UHGV virus genome: UHGV-0033546
DNA: 64,000 nt
Reading direction: 5' to 3' (one strand)
DNA from: a virus
This document shows, one piece after another, positions 17,399 to 19,081 of the stretch. Made by a program: the position numbers and the translations under genes. Under the pieces are notes generated by a model that ran no database searches, was not told where the DNA came from, and worked only from the letters and a program-made list of their open reading frames with translations. The number at the start of each line of letters is the position of its first letter. Position 1 is the first letter of the stretch.

Positions 17399-17539
17399 TT
17401 ACCATACTAGTGAATGTAGTGCCATAATAACATCAGAAATGAAAAGCACGACTTGAATTAATCCGAACATTACTCCATAATATAGTGCTACCAATAAAGT
17501 AGCAAGGACTAATGAATAGCCCAAGATTTTCTTAATCAT
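17399..17539 (-). CDS. Small membrane protein (46 aa)
   Basis: MIKKILGYSLVLATLLVALYYGVMFGLIQVV...; between 52 and stp where T4 has ac/52.1. Confidence 0.4.
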   Translation of the reverse strand: MIKKILGYSLVLATLLVALYYGVMFGLIQVVLFISDVIMALHSLVW

Positions 17540-17693
17540 TTTTAATCATCTTAAGTAAGCCAACAGAAGTAGAAAGCACCCAGGCAATAAACAGAAAACT
17601 TAAGAATACTGGACCTGGGGCCCACACGCCTAAAAAGAAGCAAACCGAACAGACAATAGCCGTAATAAGTTCAATAAAAACCAGAATAACCAT
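17532..17693 (-). CDS. Small membrane protein (53 aa)
   Basis: MVILVFIELITAIVCSVCFFLGVWAPGPVFLSFLFIAWVL...; GAGGAAA RBS. Confidence 0.4.
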   Translation of the reverse strand: MVILVFIELITAIVCSVCFFLGVWAPGPVFLSFLFIAWVLSTSVGLLKMIKND

Positions 17694-17703
17694 GTTTTCC
17701 TCA

Positions 17704-17781
17704 TTAGCGTCCGAAGACGCCTTTAGTTTTAAAATTATTACGATAGAATTGCATCACATGTTCGTTATGAAAATTACTCAT
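17704..17781 (-). CDS. stp: Stp peptide (activator of host PrrC anticodon nuclease)
   Basis: 25-aa [28 protein letters not shown], near-identical to T4 Stp as I recall it; start overlaps ndd stop. Confidence 0.8.
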
Positions 17782-18236
17782 TAATATGCCTGCAAAACGA
17801 ATTTAAAGTTATCAGCCAACATACGGTTCATTTCTTCAAGCGTTTGATACTCAGAATGATGATTACGAGTAAACGCTAAAGCTAACTGACCTTTTCCAAA
17901 TCCCGTCGTCAGAGGTTTCATCTTAGAAGCAGGAAGATAAAATACTGCGTATGGAACATTGTTATTTGCAATAGTACGTGCAAGCTGAGACCGACGTTGA
18001 CGAATATGACTTAGAACTGCACTGAACCCTTGCTTAGAACGCTGATTACCTACATAAAATCGTGCAGATACGCATGGACTACTAAATGGACCACCGAGTT
18101 TACTCACTAAAAAGTAAAATCCAGGTTTAGACAAAATGTCTTTGTGCGGAGTTCCCAAAAACCACTCACCACCCTTGATTGTACCAATAACAGTAGCACC
18201 TGCGTTGTTAAGATCAGTAACAGTCATATATTTCAT
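17781..18236 (-). CDS. ndd: Nucleoid disruption protein Ndd
   Basis: ORF 17781-18284; start at internal Met ([13 protein letters not shown]...) gives 151 aa as in T4 Ndd. Confidence 0.85.
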
Positions 18237-18296
18237 ATTAATTTCCTCTAAATTATTTTCTACTCCAAGGCCGCATGAATACACACGGCCATTAAA

Positions 18297-18512
18297 TTAA
18301 TCGTCGCAGTCGACGCTCAATTCCCAAAACTCTTCTACAGTATAAGTTTCAGTATCATTTTCAATACAGAAACGTTCATTACTGTTATTTGCTAAAGTAG
18401 CATTAACTGTCGGTTTCTCGCTAGTGCTCTTAAGAGGTGAAATACGAATTAATTGATCACCATTATCTAAACAGAAAATTTCGCCAACTTTTACATCTTT
18501 AAAAATTTTCAT
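18297..18512 (-). CDS. Hypothetical protein (71 aa)
   Basis: ORF downstream of ndd. Confidence 0.45.
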   Translation of the reverse strand: MKIFKDVKVGEIFCLDNGDQLIRISPLKSTSEKPTVNATLANNSNERFCIENDTETYTVEEFWELSVDCDD

Positions 18513-18846: not shown

Positions 18847-19081
18847 AGTAAGCGTTTAATACATCAATCATTAAAACGATTGGGAATATACTCAAAACTA
18901 CTAGTATTATAACTACATTCCATATAGCTTTAACAATCTTTTTCATTTTCTGTTCCTCCGCAGTTGATAGAGTAATAATACCACAGAGGAACAGTCTTGT
19001 AAACAACTTTTTTAAAAATATTCGTAATAAATGTGAATACCAACTACTACCGCTGAAACTTGCGCAACCCACCATGCACAA
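18833..19081 (-). CDS. Small membrane protein (37-82 aa)
   Basis: hydrophobic; likely starts at internal MKKIVKAIW... Confidence 0.35.
   Translation of the reverse strand: MCMVGCASFSGSSWYSHLLRIFLKKLFTRLFLCGIITLSTAEEQKMKKIVKAIWNVVIILVVLSIFPIVLMIDVLNAYFGFM

Follow-up and report, generated by a model that had tools for sequence, protein, structure and literature searches.

The locus between ndd and gene 52 of a T4-like phage raised the question of whether a reading frame of only 25 codons was a real gene and, if it was, whether the peptide it encoded could still be active. The window, that is, the whole 64,000-nucleotide stretch of viral genome UHGV-0033546 that was analysed, contained such a frame at 17781..17704 on the minus strand, consisting of an ATG start, 25 sense codons and a TAA stop. 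The initial annotation had placed a 25-codon ORF at 17704-17781; these coordinates proved exact, and the strand, which it had not given, was minus. The length of the ORF was by itself no evidence of a gene. Chance ORFs of this size were common: the six frames of the window held 390 ATG-ORFs of 25 codons or more, and an antisense ORF of 30 residues on the plus strand (17692..17784) overlapped the one considered here. The ORF stood far beyond chance because of its homology, its conserved position between ndd and gene 52, and the coding pattern of its substitutions.

Identity and position of the ORF

The 25-residue peptide matched the Pfam family PF08133 (Anticodon nuclease activator family) with 68 bits against a cutoff of 25 (E 4.4e-19), and its residues 1-25 aligned to positions 1-25 of the 26-position model. 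It also matched PHROG 6763, described as 'activator of host PrrC lysyl-tRNA endonuclease' (E 1.4e-19). Members of this family are very short peptides of about 26 residues with their own ATG and stop, and the 25 codons of the window fitted this size. No NCBIfam model matched either this peptide or the 53-residue protein encoded downstream of it, and a literature search on PF08133 found no papers. There was only one Stp-like ORF in the window.

As a reference we used the sequence of T4 Stp annotated in HM137666 and NC_000866 (NP_049878.1, 26 residues, PF08133). In the alignment 24 of 25 residues were identical, in agreement with the near-identity to T4 Stp that the initial annotation had stated. 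Namely, residues 1-16 and 18-25 were the same, and the only substitution was L17F (CTT to TTT). In addition, the window peptide lacked Gln26 of T4 Stp, where a TAA replaced the CAG codon right before the ancestral TGA. The gene thus ended with tandem stops (17701..17706, minus strand), the TAA at 17706-17704 being directly followed by the TGA at 17703-17701.

The gene upstream encoded the nucleoid disruption protein Ndd of 151 residues (17781..18236, minus strand; Pfam PF06591, E 5.9e-91; PHROG 1102). Its ATG was located at 18236, and the PF06591 match covered positions 1-151 of the 154-position model; a mechanical list of ORFs extended the frame to a GTG at 18284. The ATG of stp (17781-17779) had one base in common with the TAA of ndd (17783-17781), and the resulting TAATG overlap (17779..17783, minus strand), which had been proposed before, could be read directly from the sequence. 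The same arrangement, characteristic of translational coupling, was present in T4, T4T, PP01, ESh30, RB51 and AugustSocin. The gene order in the window was ndd.1-ndd-stp-(ac slot)-52.1-52, with the flanking genes named by Pfam and PHROG, as in T4 (NC_000866), T4T, PP01 and RB51, all of which had stp annotated at the same position. Moreover, matches to 921 bases around the ORF were found in 562 phage records. Identity to T-even genomes was about 94-95% over the first 25 kb of the window, a region that extends from the genes of the long tail fibre to rIIA. Judged by its sequence, the window belonged to a T4-like phage of the genus Tequatrovirus, and by all features tested the ORF was assigned as the orthologue of bacteriophage T4 stp and an ordinary member of the Stp family. 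Its genomic context showed nothing unusual.

Unlike in T4, the gene after stp was not ac. The ac slot was occupied by a gene for a 53-residue hydrophobic protein with two helices (17532-17693, minus strand; MVILVFIELITAIVCSVCFF...), which matched PHROG 9347 (unknown function) and had no Pfam match. BLASTP of this protein against T4 Ac (51 residues) detected no similarity. The gene looked like a non-homologous replacement cassette. It also followed stp in AugustSocin, in QL01-like phages and in Gaprivervirus phages; the AugustSocin record labels it 'acridine resistance protein', probably by position only. In the same Escherichia phage AugustSocin (L018, 364-821), which is a close relative, ndd was annotated in two parts with an apparent frameshift, and the stp directly behind the split ndd was intact and annotated as 'type IC restriction inhibitor Stp'.

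The ORF of stp lies below the usual cut-offs of ORF tracks, and most T-even GenBank records omit it. As the initial annotation had suspected, it was often missed: among the 58 records that share the TAATGA ending, only about 7 had an stp annotation. Many of the T-even records under the match carried only the label 'nucleoid disruption protein' or 'none'. A scan that recovered stp was therefore behaving correctly, and the practical value of the result was one of annotation. In particular, inventories of defence and counter-defence genes in T4-like phages should add stp by homology (Pfam PF08133) and not by gene callers.

The F17 allele and its activity

The peptide was not new. The genome of RB51 (FJ839693) annotates a 78-nt stp whose translation (ACP31181.1) was identical to the window peptide, including F17 and the TAATGA ending. 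The two genes differed in two bases, both synonymous (F4 TTT/TTC and Q11 CAA/CAG), and the gene downstream of stp in RB51 differed from that of the window from its ATG onward. At the DNA level the allele of the window had no exact counterpart in the phage collection, and the best match there was 97.9% over 96 nt; RB68 (with an annotated stp), wV7, O157 typing phage 7, NiC89 and Ac3 matched at this level. The stp gene and the exact 25-residue allele were thus already in the public record. Since T4 stp has been characterised for decades and this allele has been deposited and named, the finding carried little biological import.

Both differences from T4 were found in many other phages. A 33-mer spanning the end of the gene gave the TAATGA ending in 58 phage records versus CAGTGA in 404. 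Carriers of TAATGA were mostly JS98/JS10/IME08-type phages, plus RB51 and the five phages matched at 97.9%; 25-residue forms were annotated as stp in RB51, RB68 and JS10. More than 500 T-even records encoded the peptide at 80% identity or above, and F17 with otherwise identical 25 residues occurred in 30 records of roughly 500, which made it a minority state. Considering these 30 and 58 records, we concluded that both differences from T4 were standing natural polymorphisms.

It has been reported that T4 Stp inhibits the type IC restriction enzyme EcoprrI and thereby unmasks the anticodon nuclease PrrC (PMC3014915; PMC12707154), which is the function that the initial annotation had named. T4 Stp alleviates the restriction imposed by two type IC enzymes, EcoprrI and EcoR124I, and has no such effect on type IA enzymes (PMC3014915). 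The presumed target of Stp is the Hsd complex, by which PrrC is ordinarily kept masked, and the tRNA that is cut is then repaired by the phage enzymes Pnk and Rnl1 (PMC3014915; PMC12707154); the binding mode of Stp is still described as unknown (PMC12707154). The residue-level criteria that we used for function came from a review (PMC3014915). According to it, suppressor mutations with loss of Stp function are concentrated in residues 4-14, relatives hardly vary in the N-terminal 18 residues, and loss of the eight C-terminal codons lowers both activities of Stp only moderately.

On these criteria, the stp of the window was very probably an expressed and active Stp. Residues 4-14 were identical between the window peptide and T4 Stp, Gln26 belonged to the dispensable tail and L17F was conservative; therefore, we considered the allele functional. 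Divergence at the residues needed for function, which the initial annotation had named as the observation that would speak against its reading, was not what we saw, as the functional residues were conserved. Against this reading stood the weak ribosome binding site, which consists of AGG only, and L17F, which falls within the N-proximal segment of 18 residues described as almost absolutely conserved, where the window was identical to T4 at 17 of 18 positions.

A reading that deserved to be weighed was that F17 and the missing residue attenuate the allele or make it a natural 'escape' form, one that no longer triggers PrrC and has either kept or lost its anti-restriction activity. Phages that escape prr+ hosts in the laboratory do carry missense mutations in the N-proximal region of Stp (PMC3014915), residue 17 lies inside the conserved segment, and F17 and the 25-residue ending were both minority states. 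However, the reported suppressors cluster in a segment that was unchanged in the window, and the change from leucine to phenylalanine is conservative. If removal of eight C-terminal codons has only a moderate effect, then loss of Gln26 alone should matter little. Moreover, both changes were present in many independent natural isolates, with the listed JS98/JS10-type phages having the 25-residue ending, and such a spread was easier to reconcile with a neutral polymorphism than with a disabled gene. In comparison to RB51, the remainder of the ORF still showed only synonymous change. We therefore considered an attenuated allele quite unlikely.

It would be a similarly faint prospect that this allele, common to RB51-type phages, is a natural specificity variant. 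Such a variant might keep type IC anti-restriction with weaker triggering of PrrC, or suit another set of type IC or PrrC-like loci of hosts. In that case the polymorphisms between L17 and F17 and between 26 and 25 residues would be traces of an arms race rather than neutral drift.

Selection on the peptide and the hairpin in its last codons

A further question was whether selection acted on the peptide itself rather than on the DNA alone. We collected 21 homologues from Tequatrovirus, Dhakavirus-like and Gaprivervirus T-even phages and from Kagunavirus siphophages. In codons 1-18 of these homologues, the variable sites were distributed over the three codon positions as 3/1/12. Residues 1-11 were invariant, and seven of these 11 codons varied synonymously. 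The bias towards third positions together with the invariant residues constituted a coding signature, and we concluded that the peptide was under selection. The Kagunavirus copies retained the C-terminal KGVFG with the use of different codons.

The Stp of Escherichia phage T2 (PV648364; L019, 401-484) had 27 residues, of which the N-terminal 18 were of the T4 type. Its C-terminus was different (…KNFGILGFKK), its gene had no UUCG hairpin, and it was unannotated in PV648364. This C-terminal difference was in line with the literature, according to which the polymorphism is limited to the C-terminal part.

The 3' end of stp also contained a C(UUCG)G-type hairpin, GGCGUC-UUCG-GACGCU (17706..17721, minus strand), which spanned the codons from G21 to R25 and the first base of the stop. 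A hairpin of this type was present at the 3' end of T4 stp as well. Its predicted stability was -9.3 kcal/mol (z -3.6) versus -11.5 in T4T. The hairpin of the window was weaker because the C-to-T change that created the TAA turned the outer G-C pair of T4 into G-U. The hairpin DNA was invariant in the 13 collected sequences of Tequatrovirus and Dhakavirus type, and the hairpin was absent from the T2 and Kagunavirus copies. There was no U-run 3' of it. A search of the whole window against Rfam at gathering thresholds gave no matches, and the hairpin therefore belonged to no curated RNA family. C(UUCG)G hairpins of this kind occur in the intercistronic regions of T4, from which they were reportedly described by Tuerk et al. 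in 1988. It may be that the hairpin is a stability or processing element that shares its sequence with the dispensable C-terminus of Stp.

The presence of this element made it necessary to consider that only the RNA is conserved. In such a case, the hairpin would be maintained together with the coupling or delivery of ribosomes to the downstream gene for a membrane protein, and the peptide would have no role. Consistent with this, the hairpin in the last codons was stable and invariant at the DNA level, and the TGA after stp (17703-17701) overlapped the ribosome binding site (GAGG) of the gene that follows. However, the 3/1/12 pattern came from codons 1-18, which lie outside the hairpin. The Kagunavirus homologues kept the peptide, including KGVFG, with other codons, no hairpin and a strong ribosome binding site of their own, and T4 genetics identified the peptide as the active agent (PMC3014915). 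The coding signature in the 21 homologues ruled this explanation out, and we gave it hardly any credence. Finally, that the ORF had arisen by chance with no gene behind it, as the abundance of such ORFs and the antisense frame might suggest, was next to impossible: it was refuted by homology and synteny, given the Pfam and PHROG matches, the conserved gene order, the more than 500 T-even records and the coding pattern.

Expression context and proposed action

For an active Stp the gene must also be expressed, and we infer that it is from the signals around it. A weak, putative Shine-Dalgarno-like AGG (17789..17791, minus strand; GCAGGCATATTAATG) was located 7 nt before the stp ATG, within the end of ndd, and might serve as a ribosome binding site. 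Since this AGG was weak and the start codon overlapped the stop of ndd, translational coupling to ndd was the likely mode of initiation. The 25 nt upstream of the ATG were identical to those of several T-even phages and differed at two positions from T4T; the same upstream sequence was present in phages with established production of Stp. The initial annotation had pointed to a missing ribosome binding site as a possible objection, and what we found was a putative site and a coupling context as in T4.

Approximately 1.2 kb upstream of stp on the same strand, we identified a candidate promoter of the sigma-70 or T4 early type (18975..19003, minus strand). It consisted of TTTACA, a 17-nt spacer and TGgTATTAT, with 10 of 12 matches and the TG, and an A-rich stretch preceded its GTTTACA. 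The site was conserved in T4 at 166806 (minus strand), where a second such site was located at 167085. Only tightly packed small ORFs of the same strand lay between the promoter-like site and stp, and no convincing intrinsic terminator was found in this interval. The site was thus a candidate source of a transcript that could reach stp. Two short stem-loops were present between ndd.1 and ndd (18269-18315, minus strand), CGTCG-ACTG-CGACG and GGCCG...CGGCC, neither of which was followed by a good U-run. In T4, stp is a delayed early gene (PMC3014915).

The proposed course of events would be as follows. Early-type promoters upstream would drive transcription of stp along with ndd and the small ndd.x genes. 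The TAATG overlap would couple the translation of stp to that of ndd, with some help from the weak AGG. By homology to T4 Stp, the 25-residue peptide would then bind the host type IC complex (EcoprrI, EcoR124I or their relatives) and block restriction. Where the host locus also contains prrC, this binding would at the same time unmask the latent PrrC anticodon nuclease specific for tRNA-Lys. The phage would answer PrrC with its polynucleotide kinase and RNA ligase 1, both probably encoded outside the window. By the gene order of T4, pseT (pnk) and gene 63 (rnlA) presumably lie outside the stretch covered by the window, which extends from the genes for the tail fibres past rIIA. A motif scan of all six translated frames of the window detected no Pnk motif and yielded a single match, to KEDGS.

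With respect to function, Stp belongs to the same class as T7 Ocr, ArdA and ArdB/KlcA, which inhibit type I restriction, and some of these, similar to Stp, are recognised by abortive-infection systems that are linked to restriction loci. However, Ocr, ArdA and ArdB/KlcA are folded proteins of more than 100 residues (DNA mimics or the ArdB fold), unlike the 25-26 residues of Stp. They have no sequence relationship to Stp, which is specific to type IC enzymes.

Closer relatives of the peptide were found in siphophages. In Kagunavirus, an ORF of 25 residues was 88-92% identical to the window Stp and ended in [A/T]KGVFGK. It was unannotated in Escherichia phage K1ind2 (L004, 1501-1578), and others were present in L012-L015 and from position 226 of L011. 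The Kagunavirus ORF had its own GGAG ribosome binding site and, upstream, a promoter-like TTGACT...TATATT. These copies suggested a horizontal exchange between Kagunavirus and T-even phages. The Stp-like ORF of contig L011 had lost its stop, and the peptide was fused to the ORF downstream.

More divergent Stp-like peptides were encoded by P817 (Drexlerviridae; L022, 983-1075), SA30RD (L023, about 1001-1081) and HC8A (L024, about 1001-1084); the sequence of one such peptide from a T1-like or related siphophage was MSNWHNEHIMQLYRRRIKSIINSCEVQ. We had considered whether the Stp-like peptides of T1-like siphophages were new, and this was rejected, as a T4 Stp-like peptide and a polynucleotide kinase had already been reported in TLS and Stevie in the Stevie genome announcement (PMC4319613). 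Similar to the window Stp, the siphophage peptides (TLS, Stevie, P817, SA30RD, HC8A and K1ind2) had 25-30 residues and the core SN(F/W)HNEH(V/I)MQ(F/L)YR. In contrast to the window, their genes stood alone, had a ribosome binding site of their own and were not accompanied by ndd, and the C-terminal halves of the T1-like versions diverged from the window Stp. A tblastn search gave approximately 280 further weaker candidate records, many of them from Salmonella phages; those below about 60% identity had E-values near or above 0.1. In P817, a gene annotated as polynucleotide kinase was followed by the Stp-like ORF, which started approximately 740 nt downstream.
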